Source: Octopus sinensis (taxonomy: Eukaryota). From it: 64,000 bases of DNA. The stretch is from contig NC_043015.1 of the NCBI RefSeq assembly GCF_006345805.1, positions 4,030,001 to 4,094,000 of the forward strand, in the 5' to 3' direction. The first letter of the stretch is position 1; each line of letters begins with the position of its first letter. Under the pieces are notes generated by a model. That model was not told where the DNA came from. It was given only the letters and a program-made list of their open reading frames with translations, and did no database searches. This document shows positions 37,831 through 50,266 of this stretch, piece after piece. Position numbers and translations under genes: made by a program.

Positions 37831-39042
37831 ATTCGCTTTACTATGCGTTATGGCTTTTCGCAGTCTTGCGATGCGATTCTTGATATTCAGCTCATTTATT
37901 ACAAAAGTTATACTCTTTTTTATATACATTCCTCTCATCAGTTTATAAAATAAAGATAAAATTGTTGTATATCTAAGTATAACTTCCGTTTTCTAAACTT
38001 GCAGCCAGATATGCTAATATCTCCTGGCTTTTCAATTTTTACTCTCTTATTAAATGAATAAAATTTGCCTTAAGATGAAACTCTTCATGAATAATTTTGT
38101 ATTACTCGTCTTACTGTTTGATGTTTCCATGCCATCTTTTGTCCTGTTTACTATTCCAGCTATTTAACTTAGGTTAGGAAGAGATTCCCATCATGTCAAT
38201 ACATTCATGAAACTTAACTTAGTATGTCAATTCAATAGTTAATCATCTAACTATTCCGTTTTAAATTTGCCTGAATTTTGCTATGCAGTTTGGTTCAGAT
38301 ACAAATATGCATTGAAATTGCATGCGAAAAATATTACATTCCGATAACATTATTACTCTAACATAAGTATTTCTGCCAGTTCACGTTTAACGGAGAGCAT
38401 TGTAATCCTCCAAACTCTATACATCTTTATTATCTTAAGTTGCGAATATATACATATGTACATGTATACATATACATATAATTTTACATAGGTGCGACAT
38501 TGTTAATTTTCAAGAGAAGACAAACAAATGATTTGAGTCTAATTAGAGATAAAATTAAATGATTCCAAGCAAGTCTTAGAAAATTAATCAGGACTCCTAA
38601 AGACAGAAACATAGACTATACTATCAATTAATAATTAATTTGTACTACAAAAAATACAGGCCTGGAAATAATAAATGTGTGTTACGTTTCGGAGAATTTT
38701 TACCAATTTTTTACATCTATATGTAATGTAAAAATTCTGGAAAGGAACAAGCTTTGAGATGCTTGCACATATGAAAATTTACATTTGCCCAGGATAAATA
38801 TTTGATAAATATTTAAACGACAGATCGTTTTGAAATAATGGACTATAAGTGATTATCCAATAAAGAATTGAAATGGAGACGAATCACCTCTAAAGTAACG
38901 AATAACTCAGGGTAGATAGACCAACAATTTAAACAGTTAAATGAAAGTTTATTATGTAAAGGCGCTTAAGAAAATGCACCGGGTAGCAACTGCAACGGTT
39001 AATAATCGGTGCAGTTACAAAGTACATTTGTGTATGTAGAGC

Positions 39043-39076
<34 letters not shown>

Positions 39077-40611
39077 CATGTGTATATTGTTCGATGTTCC
39101 GCTATTTCAAACCCCCAAAATTACCGTCATTAATGTTAGTAAGCTTAACTTAATTACGTCACGAATGTGAAGACTTGAATCATTCTATAATATAAATTCG
39201 AGTATTCTTTCATTAATAAAATATATGCAAATCTGCACTTCGACTACGTACCCCATAATATTTCCTAAAATAATAGTATTTTTTAATGAGTATTTAAGTA
39301 GAATCATCAATATTACTAAGTGTTTAATTGAATTTGATTTAAAATGATGTATTATATATGAACAACAATCTCATTACATATGTTTTAAATCTCGGATCAC
39401 GTATAGTATTTAAGCCTTCAAATCTGGTTATGCCTTTACTTGTCGTACAGTATTTTAATATGTCATATATATATATCGGTAGGTGTCTCTATAACATGCA
39501 TAGTTCCGGCTTAACAGTTTCTTTATTCCTTGTTTCAAAATTTTCTATTATATATCAACAACACTGTCATTGTATATATTTTATACAAGCTTATTTTAGA
39601 ATGATGTGAACAAATTACAAACCATTATCATACAATTCAAATATGCTATATAAATAAATTTTGCTTATGTATAAAAGCAGAAATAGAAATGTTAAAACGC
39701 GAGTTTGTGGTGTATCGCAAACTAAACTCTGATACTCTGATCTCAGGAATTACACATATGTTGTACCAAAATATGGCATTAGAGGTACGTTTCGATATGG
39801 AAGATCATGTAGCTTCCTCAGCGTATCATATTGTATTCTGTTTTTGTATTTTATTATTTTTAATGATATGCTTTTAGTTCATGGCCAAATCCGTTATCAT
39901 ATATAATCCTCCTTTGAATGGTATTGTTTTCTCTCTTCCTGTTTATGGATGATTACGGAAGGATTAAAAGAATGAATAAAATGTATTTTTAGCTTTTTTT
40001 TTAATGTTGTTTTTTTTAATAAGGACAATGCTGTTTTATAATCCTCTTGTTAATATTGATGGGTTGTGAGATCTGAGGTAACGTTAATTGACTGCCGAAG
40101 AGATTCTACAGATAAATCTATGAATATTTTAGAGTAATAAAGAAATTGTTCACTTTTTCTGCTTTATTTTTTATATGTTGCCTGCATTTTATATGATTTT
40201 CAAAGGAATGTATAATGCTTGGGTGATTTGTCATTTTGTGAATGTCTGTCAAATACAGATGAAAAATACAGACGATGCAACTCCATGTTATTGATAGCCT
40301 ATGCCATTTAGAAAATGATACATGGAAATCTCAATGCAAAACCCACGTAAAGAAAATCAAATAGATATGTCAATAGGCATTTACATATATTTTCATGCAA
40401 ACCACTGACCCGTGTTTGCACATTTTAAAGCAAAGAAGTTCCAAATGCATTGTTAAATCTACAGGACATAAGAGTACTATTGGCTTCGGCTCCCTAAATA
40501 ATACTGCAGAAACGATTTATTCATGAATATTTAAACTTACTCGATATTACAATATTAAATTTGCATTCGCACACGCACAAACAGAGTTAGGTAAATGCGT
40601 ATGTAAGTTAG

Positions 40612-40651
<40 letters not shown>

Positions 40652-41805
40652 TGATAAATATGTACAGTTGTCATTTCATTGCGGACATTTCAAGCGGCTG
40701 CATTTAATTCATTAATGAGACCATTATATCAATTCTAAAGAAACCGTTCTTTTCAGATGACCGCATAGGCATCAAACATAAAGGAAAGATAAACAATTAT
40801 CATAAATAAATTTACCTCACTAATAGAAACCAGGATAGATGCTTTGTTCCCTGATATTATATCTGTGGCAGAAGCTGTTTAGAAATTAATGCATACCTTC
40901 TTTACTATGTTATAGAGAATAGAAGAAGCGGTGAGTGTCGTGATAATATACATAGAAGATTTTTACGAAGCATGTAGTATTCAACCATTTAGAATTAAAT
41001 CCCTAGTGAACTGTCAACTGTATTCAAGTTGATGTGGATAAATCTATTCAAGTCAGACAATCTACTAGACTCTCGATTTACTGTCACTATATATCTAAGT
41101 TGAGACATATATAAAATAGTATATAGAAGTTTTGCTGGTAAGACAATGACTGTTGGTGAAGTGGTGATCACTGGATGAAGGAAAGGTAGGTGTGGCCAAT
41201 ATTTATTTAGATTGCAGTATAAATGAGAATATAATGAGAAAACAAACGGGATAAGTAATATAAACCTTAGCGGGGGAAATTGGAATTGAAAGATGGAAGA
41301 AGTAGTAATTTAAAACTTTAAAATTTATTTTATTAAATTGAGAATATTTAAATCAATATATCGAATAAGAAGAAGAATTAAAACCTAATAATAGGATACG
41401 ATATATAAAAATAAATAATATCTTTTTTCTTAAGCAAATTATTAAAAAATATCATGAAAGAACATTCCATAATGAAAGTATAACTGAATTAAATTTTCAT
41501 ATGAGTAGAAGTAGACAGTAAATATCAAGGCAATTACAAGAATTATTTACTTCATTACAGAAGGATAAGTATAAAATATAGTAGAATATGGTGTCGCATG
41601 TAAGCACCTAATTACATTGAATCTTAATTATATATATACTCCTTTCAACATATATATACACATATATAGGGATATAAGAGTGGTAATGCCCGTAAATATA
41701 AAGCATACACATCACACTCTCTCAGTGTCTCTCTCACTTTATATATATACACATGCATACATACATACATAAAAACACACACACAAATTTATATATATAT
41801 ATAAT

Positions 41806-42009
41806 GGGAAGCTTTATGAAAATAAACAAAAGACGAAGGCTGGTGGAATGCAAACAAACAATTGTATTAGTATGGCGCTCAGGAATATAAATAAAACAAG
41901 TCTTTCACGTTTCGAGCCTACGCTCTTCAACAGAAAGATACACAGAAAAGAAACACGGAGAGAAAAAAGGAGAGACAAAAAATGCGTGCAGAAGCTAGCG
42001 AATCAACAT
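41806..42009 (-). mobile_element. ~200-bp (TA)n-embedded repeat carrying a minimal hammerhead-like motif (41901-41938)
   Basis: Minus strand: tcttt-CTGTTGAA-GAGC-gtag-GCTC-GAAAC-GTG-aaaga; near-identical inverted copy at 45300-45529. Confidence 0.75.
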
Positions 42010-43003
42010 ATATATATATTGCTGAAAATATGTAGAAAACAAATATAAAATGGGGAAGACAAATGCCTTCGTTTCATATAGTATAATATCTTTTTTAGAA
42101 ATATATACCTGTCGAGAAATCCAACCGGTTTTCGCTATTTAACTTAGCTTTTCGAGGGACATTTTCAGTAATCAAAGCCCGTGACAAAGAGGTCTCGTCA
42201 TTTTGGTTGCTTGAATAATAACAATGAATCAAGAGTGGCAACAGAGCACAGGGAGTACAACTGGCTCCTCAGTATAAATTTTAAATTGGTCATATTTGTA
42301 TATTGAGGTTTGGTCTGTAATTTTGTACGAACCGGTTTTCCTTCTGTAGGCGTTCTTGTATTGAGATTGAGTATATTTTTATATTTCTATATATATATGT
42401 ATATATAGATATATGCATATACACACAAACACACACACGCACATGCATACATACATACATATATATATGTATATATATATATTCGTATAAATTTGTATGC
42501 ATATCAGTGCATATATGAAAACATATACGTGCACCAAATCATGTACAATTATATATTGGCTACACACATACGTACACACACAGCATGTATATATCGATTT
42601 TCAAGCTGCCAGATTATTTTTTTCTACGTAGTGCACTTGCTCCATGGCAACCGTGTGGGTGCCGATATCCACGACAAATCTTGCTGGATAACAAACTTTT
42701 ATGTAACTGATGTCGCAAATATGAAAGAGGCTTTGTAAAAAAAATGAACATTAGCGACGGAATTAATATTAATAAAGAATGACACTATAAGCTACTTAAC
42801 TTGGATGCATTATTAAAACCTCGAATCCTGCGGTATTAATGACAGCTCCTTTCAGTTATCATTCTCTTGTGTAGTTATCATGCACTATAAGGTATCTTTT
42901 GATGCACAATAAATATTTTGTTTGATACATCTATCAGAAGATGTGGAGAAGGTTTATCATTTCCACCATGGTTTATTTGTATACATATACATACATGTAC
43001 GTG

Positions 43004-43036
<33 letters not shown>

Positions 43037-43069
43037 ATGTGTCTGTGTGTGTGTGTATATGTGTGTGTG

Positions 43070-43304
43070 TGGCGTTACATGGCTTAGTTGTTAGGGTGTC
43101 AGCATCATGATCGACCGATTGTGGTTTCGATTTTTGGATAAGGTGACGCGTTGTGTTATTGAGCAATACACTACATTTCACAATGCTCCACTCCATTTAG
43201 CTGGCAAAAATGAGTAACACTGCGATGGACTGGCGTCCCGCCCAGCTGCAGGGTACACATAGGCCATTGAAACCGAGAAACCTGTCTAGGCTTTCAAAGG
43301 GCGC

Positions 43305-43308
<4 letters not shown>
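43070..43308 (+). mobile_element. tRNA-derived SINE, family 3
   Basis: A-box tggcttagttg, B-box ggtttcgatt, ttgagcaatacact, and ctgcgatggactggcgtcccg block. Confidence 0.8.
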
Positions 43309-43343
<35 letters not shown>

Positions 43344-43345
43344 TA

Positions 43346-43397
<52 letters not shown>

Positions 43398-43653
43398 TAT
43401 GAATTTTTGTTTTAATATTCATATGTGTCGATATATATTAATTTATATTAAATTTGTTGGATATTAAACTTTGTTGGACTTTTGGATTTTACTCATAGGA
43501 TATTGGAATATTACAGATATATAACAATTATGCCTATAAACGGATTTACAAATTCTATACCCCTGCATATCTTACATGTACTTCCTTTCCTCCAAAACAC
43601 TCGCTGTTTTGTATCACATCGTAACAACTATGACTTAATTTTTCCTCTTACAC

Positions 43654-43705
43654 GTCTCCGATGAAGAGACGTTATTAATTAAAATCTTGGAAACAGCTGT
43701 AAGAC
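43654..43705 (+). ncRNA. Type I hammerhead motif, U4C variant core
   Basis: Stem I gtct/agac; CCGATGA 43658-43664; stem II gaga/tctt; GAAAC-AGCT-GTA 43690-43701 with palindrome ACAGCTGT. Confidence 0.6.
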
Positions 43706-43807
43706 CTTCTATTCATAAGTGCTCTAATATCTATACAGCCTTGGGTTTTATATCATTACGCACAATTTTCTTTATATATATGTATGTATATGTATATATA
43801 TATATAT

Positions 43808-43875
<68 letters not shown>

Positions 43876-44146
43876 ATGTATATATATATTATGAATTTTT
43901 GTTTTTAATATTCATATGTGTCGATATATATTAATTTATATTAAATTTGTTGGATATTAAACTTTGTTGGACTTTTGGATTTTACTCATAGGATATTGGA
44001 ATATTACAGATATATAACAATTATGCCTATAAACGGATTTACAAATTCTATACCCCTGCATATCTTACATGTACTTCCTTTCCTCCAAAACACTCGCTGT
44101 TTTGTATCACATCGTAACAACTATGACTTAATTTTTCCTCTTACAC

Positions 44147-44198
44147 GTCTCCGATGAAGAGACGTTATTAATTAAAATCTTGGAAACAGCTGTAAGAC
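44147..44198 (+). ncRNA. Type I hammerhead motif, copy 2
   Basis: Identical to 43654-43705. Confidence 0.6.
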
Positions 44199-44279
44199 CT
44201 TCTATTCATAAGTGCTCTAATATCTATACAGCCTTGGGTTTTATATCATTACGCACAATTTTCTTTATATATATGTATG

Positions 44280-44324
<45 letters not shown>

Positions 44325-44642
44325 TATAATATATATATATATGTGTGTGTGTGTGGGTGTGTGTGTGTATGTATATATATATTATGAATTTTTGTTTTTA
44401 ATATTCATATGTGTCGATATATATATTAATTTATATTAAATTTGTTGGATATTAAACTTTGTTGGACTTTTGGATTTTACTCATAGGATATTGGAATATT
44501 ACAGATATATAAAATTATGCCTATTAAACGGATTTACAAATTCTATACCCCTACATATCTTACATGTACTTCCTTTCCTCCAAAACACTCGCTGTTTTGT
44601 ATCACATCGTAACAACCTATGACTTAATTTTTCCTCTTACAC

Positions 44643-44694
44643 GTCTCCGATGAAGAGACGTTATTAATTAAAATCTTGGAAACAGCTGTAAGAC
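44643..44694 (+). ncRNA. Type I hammerhead motif, copy 3
   Basis: Identical to 43654-43705. Confidence 0.6.
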
Positions 44695-44803
44695 CTTCTA
44701 TTCATAAGTGCTCTAATATCTATACAGCCTTGGTGTTTTATATCATTACGCACAATTTTCTTTATATATATGTATGTATATGTATATATATATATAATAT
44801 ATA

Positions 44804-44873
<70 letters not shown>

Positions 44874-45054
44874 TTATATGCATGTATGTGTACGTATTCC
44901 TATATTAGTATATTTGTATAAGTAATGATTTGGAATACTTACGTATTTCAACACCTAAGTTTACTACGTCGCTTGCTGCTTATGTTGTGATTAATTTCGT
45001 CACTCTAATACGCGTCTCTTGCTCATATTCATCTCACCCCAATTTTTCACAGAT

Positions 45055-45235
45055 ATAGGCTCGGGCGTGGCAGTAAAGCAAGAAGGATCCTTCTCAACTA
45101 AACGGTCTAGGTTTCTGTTCCACAGTATGGATAGTTTGGTTAGATATCTTCTACTCTTACCTGTCACTCACCAATGGCTGCTTAGTGGATTTGATAGACG
45201 TAACTTGAAAGTAGAGCGTCGTATGTGTGTGTGTG

Positions 45236-45295
<60 letters not shown>

Positions 45296-45528
45296 CGCCA
45301 TGTTGATTCGCTAGCCTCTGCACGCATTTTTTTCTCTTTTTTATTCTCTCCTTTTTTTCTCTCCTTGTTTCTCTCTGTGTTTCATTTCTGTGTATCTTTC
45401 TGTTGAAGAGCGTAGGCTCGAAACGTAAAATACTTGTTTTATTTATATTCTTGAGCGCCATACTAATACAATTGTTTGTTTGTATTCCACCTGCCTTCGT
45501 CTTTTGTTTATTTTCATAAAGCTTCCCG

Positions 45529-45566
<38 letters not shown>

Positions 45567-45830
45567 GTGTGTGTATGTATGTATGCATGTATGTATATGT
45601 GTGCGTGTATGGCGGGGCGCCCCTGATATATATTTTTTCGTGCTTTGTGTCTCTGTGTTGAAATGTTTACATCACCGTTACTTAAGAATTCGGCAAAAGA
45701 GATTAACAGACTAAATACCAGGCTTAACAGAAGCAAATATATACAGGTGGTGATTCATTCGACTAACAGTTCATCATGGTGGGTCTCCAGCATTGTTGCA
45801 GATTAATGACAGGAACGGCGAAGTTATGAA
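45055..45830 (+). mobile_element. Degenerate family-2 SINE split by an insertion in its internal microsatellite
   Basis: 5' half (..gtggatttgatagacgtaac..cgtcgtat) at 45055-45225; 3' half (tgtttacatc..ttcggcaaaagaga..ctccagcat) at 45660-45830. Confidence 0.65.
45300..45529 (+). mobile_element. (TA)n-embedded repeat with minimal hammerhead-like motif (45392-45433)
   Basis: ttt-CTGTTGAA-GAGC-gtag-GCTC-GAAAC-GTA-aaa; inverted copy of 41806-42009. Confidence 0.75.
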
Positions 45831-47513
45831 ATATTTGTCTATTACATGTATTGAAACTACCTGTAGCTTTTACATTTACTTATTTATAGAATATATATTC
45901 AAATATGTAATATATCATTGCTGTCAGATATATAAGTATCAGTGATATTTTATTACCGAAATGGGTATAATTGCGTAGGTACATCGGATTTTATAGATTG
46001 ATATTCACACTGCGATCATTCATAAAATTTTATTTCCAGCCTGTGTAATAAAGTCTTCAAAAAATATATAGATTAAAGGATTTTAATAGACAGCTCTAAT
46101 TTCGTTTATCATTTATTTAGATTTAAGCACCATAAATAACATCCTGCTTTTATAGCTTTTCTAGACTTTACGGTGGAAACGTGTATTTTGTTGCTGGTAT
46201 TGTTAATGTATAAATAATAAAGCTGTAGAATGTATAGTATAAAGTATGGAATAATTTATATTAGGTTACGTTGAATCTATATGCACTACTCTAGTATGAG
46301 GTCTGTTAAAAGCAAAAGGGTGCAATAAAAATTAGATAACAAAATCGAAGAAATAACTCAAATATTGAGGTGTGAGATTCATTCACACCGTTTAAATTCA
46401 GTAATCTGGAAAATTCGAAGTCATAGAAAATCTTTGACCTGAAACCAACGTCATATTACAGACTTGTTCAACCCATATGATCAATAAATCTTGAACTTAA
46501 TTTAAAAATAACGGAAATTTTTGCCCCTACGCACGTACATACTCGTCACTTGAACAATGTAACTACACACGTACAGTTGGCGATTGCTTTTCCTTCTTAG
46601 GACATTTCCTTTCCTCTTTTCTGATGATGAACTATGGTTTTTAACGTGAAACTCTTTTTACCGATCGTCAAGCTGAAACATTCGTTGTAGAGGTCCTCTT
46701 GTTTTCCGTTAATTTAATTCAAATAAATATTATCATTCGTTTATTTCAATTGACTATATACATATTTATATACCTAAATGTCGAACGATGAAAATGAGAG
46801 CTCAGCACAGCATATAATATGTTTAGTTTTGAACTGTGACTACTATCGTTTGCATGTTAAGAAAAGTAGGAAGATTCCGAGTGGCTTAGCAATTTTTGAA
46901 CTCTATGAAAAGGAGAAAGGTGTTCGCCTCCATTTTGAAAAGAAAGCTCTGTTATTTGTTTCAAGAAGATTCTCGTGATTTTAACTTAATAAAATAAAGA
47001 ATCGACGGACGTTACTTTTGAGTGGAAAGTTTTGGATATTTGTCATCTTGGATTTATCTTCTGGGCAAAGTGATGTTTGGTCAATTTGTCTCCATTATTT
47101 TGGTTTTGTTTGGGGCATGGCGTTGTTATATTTCTGTGCTGAGGTAGTTCCACATTGGAGCTCAATTCTTCTGTGCTTGAAGCTTGCTTACTAGGTGTCT
47201 TCAGATTTCACGTTTAGGGAAGTGGTGGAATATATATATATATATATATATATACCGGAGTAAACACATAAATGTGAAACAAGGTGGAAAAAAAACGTAA
47301 AAAACTTCCCGATGAACGGCAACGGGAAACTCAGAGTAACAGGTTTTGTTGAATTTTCTGCTGCTTTAAATAAAGTATATTATATATATACATACATACA
47401 TATGCATATATATAAATCTCTCTATATATATAGATATACATATATATACATATATATATATACACATATATATGTAGATATATACATATACATATTATAT
47501 ATCTGTATGTATA

Positions 47514-47569
<56 letters not shown>

Positions 47570-48149
47570 TGTATATGTAGAATGTATGGAGGTTGAGCTC
47601 TCTCAAACGTATCTCTTATATTTCTTCTATCTACCTCGTCACTTTACGAGATAAATATTAATTATTTTATCTATCTTTAATTTAGTTTGAAGCGTTATCC
47701 CGATGTATCCTCTCATATTGAACTCATTGAAATGGTTCCACTATTCTTGACTACCTACACACCCATAAACACATTGCTAAGAATAACTCTGCATCTACCG
47801 ACCTTAGCCAGGAGCGACATAAGCATTTACTACTATATTTCCTCACCAAACCCTTTAGGCTATAAGAATATAACTGACATCTACTGTTCTCTTTAAATTC
47901 CTTTCATTTTGATATGTCTTGTATACTTTTTTACATTATCTTCCTATACCCCCGGCTCCTCTCTCCTACCTTTTTTACCTACTCTTTCTCTGTCTTATCT
48001 TCTCAGCTAGTTTCGTACAATATATTCTTAGACACTAGAAGCCTATATACCTTACTTTATGCTAAACCTAATCCTTAACTTTCCCCCTCAATCTATCTAC
48101 ATCTCTTTCTATTAAATTACTTTTCTTTCCTCTTACCACTTAATAGCCA

Positions 48150-48525
48150 CCTCTGCCACCATTCTCTTATTGAACATTGATATATTCGCTTTCGTTTTGG
48201 GATGTTTATAATATCAGGACATTAATCCACATGGATCTACGCAGGATTGCACCGAATGACTTATGGACGTTTTTCTACAACATCGGAACTTTGAACTCTG
48301 AACATTTAAGCATCTTTTTTCTTCTCTCTCTTCATCTCCTTATTCTTGGACTCCTGTCATCTTTGTCGCCATTTCATTAATCTATATTTTCATTTTCCTT
48401 ATTTTTCTCTGTTGACGGAATATCCTAGAAACAGTTGTACGGCTTCCAGTTTTTTCCAATGATAATAATGTGTATGATGTGAGATGTTTGCCTTGCCTTA
48501 AAGTTTGTTGTCATCTTTATCAATT
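48150..48525 (+). mobile_element. Diverged relative of the 43.4-kb unit with a decayed hammerhead-like motif
   Basis: CTGTTGA 48409-48415, gg/cc stem, GAAAC-AGTT-GTA 48428-48439, followed by cttcc..ataatgtg..gccttg in the same order as the 43.4-kb unit. Confidence 0.4.
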
Positions 48526-48574
<49 letters not shown>

Positions 48575-48604
48575 TATATATATATATATATATATACTTA
48601 GAAT

Positions 48605-48940
48605 GAAGGCCTCTGGCTTAGTGGTTAGAGCGTCGCTCTCACAGTCATGAGGTAGTGAGTTTCATTATGGAGAGGGCTCTATGTTGTATTCTTGAGCAAG
48701 ACACTTCATTTCATGTTGCTCCAGTTCAATGAGCTGTAGAAATGAATCGCGATTTTTCTGGGTCAACATCTATCGACCTTTGCCCTTCCTTTGTATTACT
48801 TTGTTGTGGAGATCGAAGGCTGTTATACATGGGCGAGAAGCTGTATTCCGTAAACGAATTTGCCAGGACTTCTTATTTGAAGAGGAACATTATAGATGCA
48901 TCCAATGGACATTCATGACCCAAAGGGGGTCTTTACTCTT
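48605..48940 (+). mobile_element. tRNA-derived SINE (family-3-like head)
   Basis: A-box tggcttagtgg; cttgagcaagacacttcatttcatgttgctccagttca is homologous to 43158-43195. Confidence 0.75.
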
Positions 48941-49141
48941 TATATATATATCCTTATATATTTGCATATCTGTCCTCTAACATGAGATAAGTGTGCGTTT
49001 GACGTATACAAATCTATGAATAAATAGACGTGTGTACACGAGCGTGTGGGTCTGAACGGGCGCGTGAAAACTACGTTGCTGTTTGTATCTGTATAGCTAT
49101 TGAAGACTCTTGAAACCTTAGAAATTTCCTATATCTACTTC

Positions 49142-49189
<48 letters not shown>

Positions 49190-49846
49190 TTAGTTTTAAG
49201 TTAAGCATTACAAATAGCTTTATTGTTTCTCTGAAATACTAGTAATATGGAATTAACGTGTTTCGACTTAGTGAAATATTTTAAACGGCAAATATGGAGA
49301 TAAGTATGAAATAAATCAAATGAAACGAAATTGTTCAATGAGAGATGGGAAACTGTATTAGACCCGTAATTTGTCAAGAAATTTATTTAATGTGCACTAA
49401 AATGGATTGCAAAATACAATAAAAATACATTACATAATATCATAATAGGTGCATTGACAAATACCGCAAACTTTGTTTTAACATTTTGATCAAAGTTTCT
49501 GAATGTTAACTATAATATTTGTTATTTCTTAAAATAAAATGTATTTCAAATTTTAAGATAAGCTTCTGTCTCTATTTGTTTACCTTACACCTGTGTTGGT
49601 TACACTCTTAGACAAATGCATATTTTATAAATTGAATACACTTGGTAAAATGCTAGGATAAGCACGTTAAATATTTATCATAATATAAATCTTTAAACAA
49701 TCTTCTCATAGTGTTCTTACATTGATATATCGTTCTCTATATAAATCTACAAGTCAGCCTCAGCATTCTAACCTCTACCTCTATGAAACTTCTTTCTTTC
49801 TTAGTCTCTCTTTCATTCTCTCTCTCTCTCTCCCTCTCACTCTCTT

Positions 49847-49917
<71 letters not shown>

Positions 49918-50266
49918 TAGTGTATATATATACATACACACACATACACACACATACACACTCACACACACATATATATGTTTATTTATGTGGGTGGATA
50001 CATTTGTGTATGTGTGTGTATGTGAGAGAGAGAGAGAGAGATTACTGATACTTCGTTTTATACACCTTATAGCACAAACTGCCGTAAGCTAAATTTCATA
50101 AGACAGCTGTTTCTTTTGTCATCACAAATTTTTATCACCACCCTGTATTAACAGACACTTTTTACTGAAAAAATGTTCATTGAGTTCTAACACCCGGTCA
50201 TTAGCATCGCAACGATTGCATATGCGCATACATATACATCATATATCTATCTATCTATCTGTCTCC

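Follow-up and report, generated by a model that had tools for sequence, protein, structure and literature searches.

The window, a 64,000-nt stretch of Octopus sinensis DNA (contig NC_043015.1, positions 4,030,001 to 4,094,000, forward strand), carries a tandem array at 43307-44874, to which Tandem Repeats Finder assigns a period of 493 nt, 3.2 copies and 96% matches. Alignment of the three units leaves 472 of 525 columns invariant. The repeat has a low GC content (26%), and no ORF part of the parent element described below is present in the array. In window coordinates, it is laid out as follows.

43307..43397, unstranded: 5' (TA)n tract, the left array boundary; flank and likely target of the original insertion
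43398..43460, + strand: private leader of unit 1, outside the family match; the leader matches the window only
43461..43772, + strand: element part of unit 1, the 3'-terminal 312 nt of a Penelope-like element truncated at its 5' side
43652..43672, + strand: private 7-bp hairpin, shared by the three units, which by prediction occupies the 5' strand of helix I and holds the core in its loop
43654..43705, + strand: hammerhead motif 1, core CCGATGA (C3 at 43658, C4 at 43659), predicted cut after 43701
43773..43889, unstranded: linker 1, (TA)n, (TG)n and a short TA run, in which a 3' flank copy is joined to the 5' flank
43890..44265, + strand: unit 2, leader and element 3' end; hammerhead at 44147-44198, cut predicted after 44194
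44266..44382, unstranded: linker 2, (TA)n(TG)n
44383..44762, + strand: unit 3, leader and element 3' end; hammerhead at 44643-44694, cut predicted after 44690
44763..44874, unstranded: 3' (TA)n(TG)n(TA)n tract, the right array boundary

The three hammerhead-shaped motifs are spaced 493 and 496 nt apart. All read GTCT-CCGATGA-A-stem II-G-GAAAC-AGCT-GTA-AGAC, with GTCT and AGAC as helix I and the palindrome ACAGCTGT as helix III, and the (TA)n(TG)n tracts that link the units differ slightly in length. An earlier sequence-only reading had described a non-coding repeat of three ~493-nt units joined by variable (TA)n(TG)n linkers, each with a hammerhead motif and a palindromic helix III; period, linkers and motifs are all borne out in the assembly, and the motifs have the shape of type I hammerheads. 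Rfam scans of 38000-50000 and 43560-43770 returned no hammerhead family, just microsatellite-driven miRNA matches and noise. In unit 1, the first ~20 nt of the leader look like the 3' terminus of the element in inverted orientation. At its other end the leader nearly repeats the 16-17 nt with which the element fragment begins (17-nt repeat, 43445-43478), likely a 5' insertion scar.

Two further repeats surround the array. Directly upstream, positions 43072-43300 hold a very high-copy short repeat, with contig depth in the hundreds of thousands. An inverted pair (41741-41981 and 45352-45592, 89%) brackets the trimer; it ends in (TA)n and represents a short element with a minimal hammerhead-shaped motif, whose core is CTGTTGA (A6U).

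When a single 375-nt unit was searched against the whole 2.7-Gb genome, at least 2,564 candidate places were returned, of which the best 40 were scored. These 40 other places show 84-87% blastn identity, and their alignments begin at position 52-66 of the query; the first 63 nt of the unit are private and lie outside the family match. The anatomy of the family was examined in the first 30 of 210 copies picked by hammerhead pattern. In this sample the distance from the 5' end to the hammerhead downstream ranges from 3 nt to 1,500 nt or more, the 3' ends coincide, and ten copies have an inverted segment at the 5' end. In 24 of the 30, TA repeats set in 106-120 nt past C3; not every such run marks a target, the genome being TA-rich and 10 of the 30 copies running into the element's own tail. 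In those ten, a 140-nt tail continues the element. This tail sits upstream of the ORF and in the same orientation at two loci (L035 and L044), and is therefore likely to be the element's 5' end. The head-to-tail junction of the family accordingly consists of a short TA run followed by the likely 5' end rather than an expanded TA/TG tract, and none of the 30 copies repeats the unit head-to-tail through a microsatellite. The monomer including the microsatellite that had been proposed for this array is thus not supported: its private sequence exists in the window only, and the family junction lacks the expanded tract.

Variable 5' truncation, a fixed 3' end, 5' inversions and partial tandems are all seen in the family, including at L021, L027 and L028. 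The hammerhead motif, by strict pattern, is present in 24 of 27 non-window loci, and the other three carry core mutations. One locus, L033, holds on a single strand (TA)n, the inverted tail, a reverse transcriptase (RT), an endonuclease, the 3' UTR, the subfamily hammerhead and (TA)n again; its RT has the motifs LKDHK and YRDD and its endonuclease the VIY..YIG motif. Each unit of the array is almost certainly a stub of a Penelope-like element. The retrozyme-like repeat suggested earlier is not supported; the family is instead a dispersed Penelope-like element, truncated on the 5' side, with a (TA)n end and a link to an RT and an endonuclease.

The parent element can be placed more closely. The portions of Craig et al. 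2021 (PMC8557442) that deal with the Hydra clade list as its marks RWK, DKT, LKDHK, YRDD, a CxCx5C linker, CxxC/CxH, (TA)n targeting and the absence of CCHH, and give a length generally below 3 kb as a tendency rather than a strict criterion. At the RT N-terminus of the octopus copies, RWK is found in L045 and DKT in L035, L036 and L045, three copies that are 64-78% identical to the L033 RT piece. The CxCx5C linker is present in L037 and L046, and the CxxC and CxH endonuclease motifs in L031, L032 and L033. As regards CCHH, inspection by eye showed no cysteine pair inside the VIY..YIG core. The parent RT also resembles published Hydra proteins when compared by eye, and on these motif comparisons the parent is likely to be a Penelope-like element of the Hydra clade. 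Its length is estimated at ~3.9 kb from L033, where RT to 3' end spans 3.2 kb, together with L035. Pfam searches of the parent ORFs gave no RT match and GIY-YIG at E=0.2 only, and a PDB sequence search of the same ORFs gave no RT match. A protein search with the parent ORF returned ten relatives; the closest named one is an Octopus bimaculoides protein (81% over 39% of the query) with an uninformative name. Many related RT copies, at the least, lie in long open frames of up to ~1,100 codons from stop to stop and are 45-54% identical to L033, which suggests younger Hydra-type families in the genome.

How one stub came to be present three times is addressed by the divergence of the units from each other and from their family. 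Units 1 and 2 show no substitution over 312 nt and unit 3 is ~1% away; compared with unit 1 it differs mostly in single-base indels, with one or three substitutions depending on the alignment. The distance to the family majority is 10-11% for all three units and 1.9-4.6% for 26 other copies, which were selected as the best matches to the window unit. Thirty substitutions relative to the family majority are common to all three units, 16 of them found in none of the 26 copies. Searched genome-wide with one mismatch allowed, the private stem II variant matches just the three window sites, and the private leader, with two mismatches allowed, matches units 1 and 2 only, unit 3 having an extra AT. 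Units that are 99-100% alike, 10% from the majority and unique in leader and stem II are therefore best understood as one old insertion that was either tripled locally or repeated by the assembly. The array begins and ends within TA tracts, and its inner junctions join the (TG)n of the 3' flank to the last bases of the 5' flank. Given these boundaries and junctions, and with none of the 30 family copies repeating through a microsatellite, the microsatellite is most likely captured flank.

We regard a real DNA-level triplication of the stub in place as the probable explanation. Repeat-mediated unequal crossover is an established natural route to TA-bounded duplication. A parallel case at another family copy (L025/L026, C15:61930334-61934609), which lacks the catalytic G12, supports a DNA-level cause: there a 961-bp, 99% identical, TA-bounded tandem duplication takes in ~500 bp of flanking sequence unrelated to the family. 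Less probable is an artefact of assembly or consensus, in which the same decayed stub is present only once or twice in the animal and the long TA tracts on both sides gave rise to the trimer; we judge it unlikely while giving it real weight. The near-identity of the units, whose differences are mostly single-base indels and tract length, would be expected of such an artefact, as would the long low-complexity tracts that bound the array and the further near-identical TA-bounded duplications in the same assembly. Against it, the linkers differ in internal structure, unit 3 carries its few substitutions, and TA-bounded duplication is also expected naturally; the indel-rich differences of unit 3 fit real triplication and long-read error alike. 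Among contigs of four sequencing runs, X23 matches the 5' flank at 42520-42970 with no differences at a depth of 48, and X24 with one difference. At 98% identity or above, contigs of these runs cover neither 43552-43680, nor most of the leader, nor any junction; these gaps weigh neither for nor against the trimer.

Two RNA-level accounts fit the divergence and the family anatomy far less well. If the trimer had been made at insertion by repeated template jumping of a Penelope RT, copies of the same age should diverge from each other as much as from the family, whereas 0-1% was found against 10%. That origin is attractive in that Penelope elements often insert as tandems or partial tandems, as the relevant parts of PMC8557442 describe, and the family copies themselves show such structures. 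It would nonetheless need an unseen young source with the private changes, when the genome search of the stem II variant found none, and the trimer junction lacks the family's 140-nt 5'-end segment. The divergence pattern largely refutes template jumping at insertion, and we consider it very unlikely. Least probable of all is an active retrozyme, a 493-nt monomer that includes the microsatellite, is cut by dimeric hammerheads, circularised and re-inserted as multimers. The array does offer three tandem type I hammerhead motifs at retrozyme-like spacing in low-GC sequence (26%) and a self-complementary helix III (duplex -11.1 kcal/mol). A purely operational definition, tandem repeat plus a hammerhead per unit, as used in the part of bioRxiv 10.64898/2026.07.22.740005 consulted here, would flag it, and the genome does carry hammerhead partial tandems of similar size (L057 and L038). 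The private unit, however, is found at a single locus only, and none of the 30 examined copies repeats through a microsatellite. The active fold lies 11.1 kcal/mol above the best fold, a gap that averages 3.0 in 15 family copies, and helix I has a predicted probability of 0.00 in both unit and two-unit transcript. A circle would, moreover, require two ribozymes at the outset, so that the first duplication would have to have arisen in another way.

Local triplication of one old insertion suggests the following history. Members of the family have a fixed 3' end ~115 nt after the hammerhead with TA repeats next to it, variable 5' truncation and frequent 5' inversions. At this locus, enzymes of the parent would have primed reverse transcription at a nicked TA tract and stopped ~190 nt upstream of the hammerhead. 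The copy then diverged and now stands 10% from the family majority, with private stem II changes for which folding models predict a misfolded ribozyme. At a much later time the 5' and 3' TA tracts would have mispaired, and slippage or unequal crossover between them would have given three near-identical units; this mechanism is deduced from the array boundaries only. In the parent, by analogy with published Penelope hammerheads, tandem transcripts may be cleaved by U4C hammerheads that pair as dimers via the ACAGCUGU palindrome.

Folding models place the window copy apart from its relatives. Its stem II has a stability of -1.5 kcal/mol, compared with about -9.5 kcal/mol in typical family copies and a mean of -9.1 kcal/mol in the 15 of 30 family copies that match the full motif. 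In those 15, the hammerhead fold costs on average 3.0 kcal/mol over the best fold (range 1.3-10.3), set against the 11.1 kcal/mol of the window copy. Within the whole unit and a two-unit transcript, monomer folding models give the private 7-bp hairpin a pair probability of 0.88-0.98 and helix I 0.00. The window copy is thus predicted to misfold, and to be a poor ribozyme, through its private changes. The palindromic helix III can, by computation, form an 8-bp duplex of -11.1 kcal/mol, as would be expected for dimeric cleavage. The private stem II changes jointly complete a perfect 7-bp inverted repeat (43652-43672 and its copies), as might result from a template-switch mutation at a quasi-palindrome.

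A conserved A·G pair at the base of stem II was considered and rejected. The two nucleotides are unpaired and both vary freely in the genome: the listed motifs have A, C or T on the 5' side and any of the four bases on the 3' side. The extra pair of the sequence-only reading is therefore replaced by two variable, unpaired positions, a feature already published for hammerheads of Penelope and Hydra: the relevant part of Cervera and de la Pena 2014 (PMC4209133) describes such additional bases next to stem II, and by our own count 19 of the 26 Hydra rows in File S2 of PMC8557442 have an extra nucleotide on both sides of the stem.

The core itself proved to be a property of the subfamily. As given in the pertinent section of Perreault et al. 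2011 (PMC3088659), the canonical core is C3 U4 G5 A6 N7 G8 A9 / G12 A13 A14 A15.1 / U16.1 H17, and the array motif matches it at all positions except U4C. Genome-wide, CCGATGA-N8-36-GAAACAGCTGT is matched 2,203 times and a reversed control once, so that the pattern cannot be put down to chance; its CTG form has 2,090 matches and one control match. At positions 4-5, the first 100 of 210 copies of the closest subfamily read CG in 81, TG in 8, CA in 9 and TA in 2. A sister subfamily, which is ~73% alike in the region of the ribozyme, reads TG in 92, TA in 5, CG in 2 and TC in 1 of the first 100 of its 240 copies. A separate family of 474-nt partial tandems, to which L057 belongs, has CCG in 24 of 25 copies.

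Two simpler readings of these counts were discarded. C4 is not the mutation of a dead copy, given the CG majority of its own subfamily, and the CTG copies are not all products of CpG decay, given the TG majority of the sister subfamily. A CG majority accompanied by similar numbers of TG and CA implies that C4 was already in the source and that copies decay by CpG loss on both strands equally. The counts show no sign of selection following insertion. On these counts C4 is the fixed state in at least two families. The concern that the family consensus might be CTGATGA, leaving the window copy as a dead one, is hereby removed, and CCGATGA is seen to be the subfamily's own core.

In the literature on hammerhead U4C or CCGAUGA, the sole relevant find was Perreault et al. 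2011 (PMC3088659), and in that on hammerheads in octopus it was Craig et al. (PMC8557442). The passages of PMC6466107 and PMC6765202 concerned contain nothing on U4C, and we found no report of it in Penelope-like elements, although studies cataloguing Penelope hammerhead variants, supplements included, may list it. The earlier suggestion that the variant core may be poorly described may hold for U4C and fails for the extra bases of stem II, which were already published. We propose tentatively, at somewhat short of even odds, that hammerheads with a U4C core are functional and that this core became fixed on more than one occasion among Penelope-like elements of the octopus (in Hydra-type subfamilies, whose sister subfamily is fixed for U4, and in the partial-tandem family). 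U4C itself is a real but modest variant of a known hammerhead type.

The trimer itself is of minor importance, being a repeated fossil. Its wider relevance lies partly in annotation, as pipelines that rely on a tandem repeat plus a hammerhead will call TA-bounded duplications retrozymes. The U4C core is of modest consequence. U4 is among the conserved core positions of the hammerhead, and published searches require it. Fixation of C4 in successful lineages means either that the core tolerates C4 in a dimeric context, or that these lineages spread with little or no cleavage. The U4 and C4 sister subfamilies make the choice between tolerance and dispensable cleavage testable, and bear on the still unsettled function of Penelope hammerheads. 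If C4 hammerheads do cleave as dimers, thousands of active ribozymes would be invisible to CUGANGA descriptors, and the sister pair would constitute a natural experiment on the level of cleavage that these elements need.

Among known systems, metazoan non-LTR retrozymes are the first point of comparison. The portions of PMC7229834 and bioRxiv 10.64898/2026.07.22.740005 that define them describe families whose tandem arrays occupy many loci and are expressed as circles. Like these, the window array consists of non-coding tandem units of low GC content, each bearing a type I hammerhead. It differs in that tandem copies of its unit occur at just one locus, in that this unit is a piece of an autonomous element, and in its predicted misfolding; tandem units with a hammerhead are present, and a mobile multi-locus family of them is not. 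Other hammerhead tandems were noted in the same genome. Elsewhere in the window, at 1478-2414, a partial tandem with a period of 603 nt (97%) ends in (TA)n. Its copies carry a CTGAAGA...GAAACGTA hammerhead-shaped motif whose stem II and loop span ~84 nt, and it looks like a true non-autonomous Penelope-type partial tandem. A 474-nt-period partial tandem at positions 345-1248 of L057 (orientation as stored) has a (TA)n end and a long-stem-II hammerhead with a CCGATGA core. A related one at positions 1-745 of L038, with a period of 459 nt, likewise has a (TA)n end and a long-stem-II hammerhead, with the core CTGACGA. The latter two are better retrozyme candidates than the window trimer.

Comparison with the Hydra clade, as presented in the parts of PMC8557442 that cover it, shows both kinship and divergence. 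The parent shares the RT and endonuclease motifs, the preference for insertion at (TA)n and the 3' type I hammerhead, and at an estimated ~3.9 kb it seems longer than the usual <3 kb; the window, by contrast with such elements, holds just a decayed 312-nt stub, three times. An acag/ctgt helix III occurs in 4 of the 26 Hydra rows of File S2. The hammerhead of Hydra-1_Obim differs from that of the window subfamily, which therefore represents another family. All 26 published rows, found with canonical descriptors, start with CTG (U4), where the window subfamily has CCG. The minimal hammerheads in pseudo-LTRs of metazoan Penelope-like elements (PMC4209133) include a different core variant, U3-A8, and U4C is unmentioned in the main-text portions of that source. 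The closest precedent comes from a viroid: a natural U4C variant (Ambros and Flores 1998), described in the relevant portion of Perreault et al. 2011 (PMC3088659), had considerably lower activity in vitro and yet permitted infectivity. The core change is the same, but in the viroid it is a rare variant, while in the octopus it is fixed in retroelement subfamilies of hundreds to thousands of copies.
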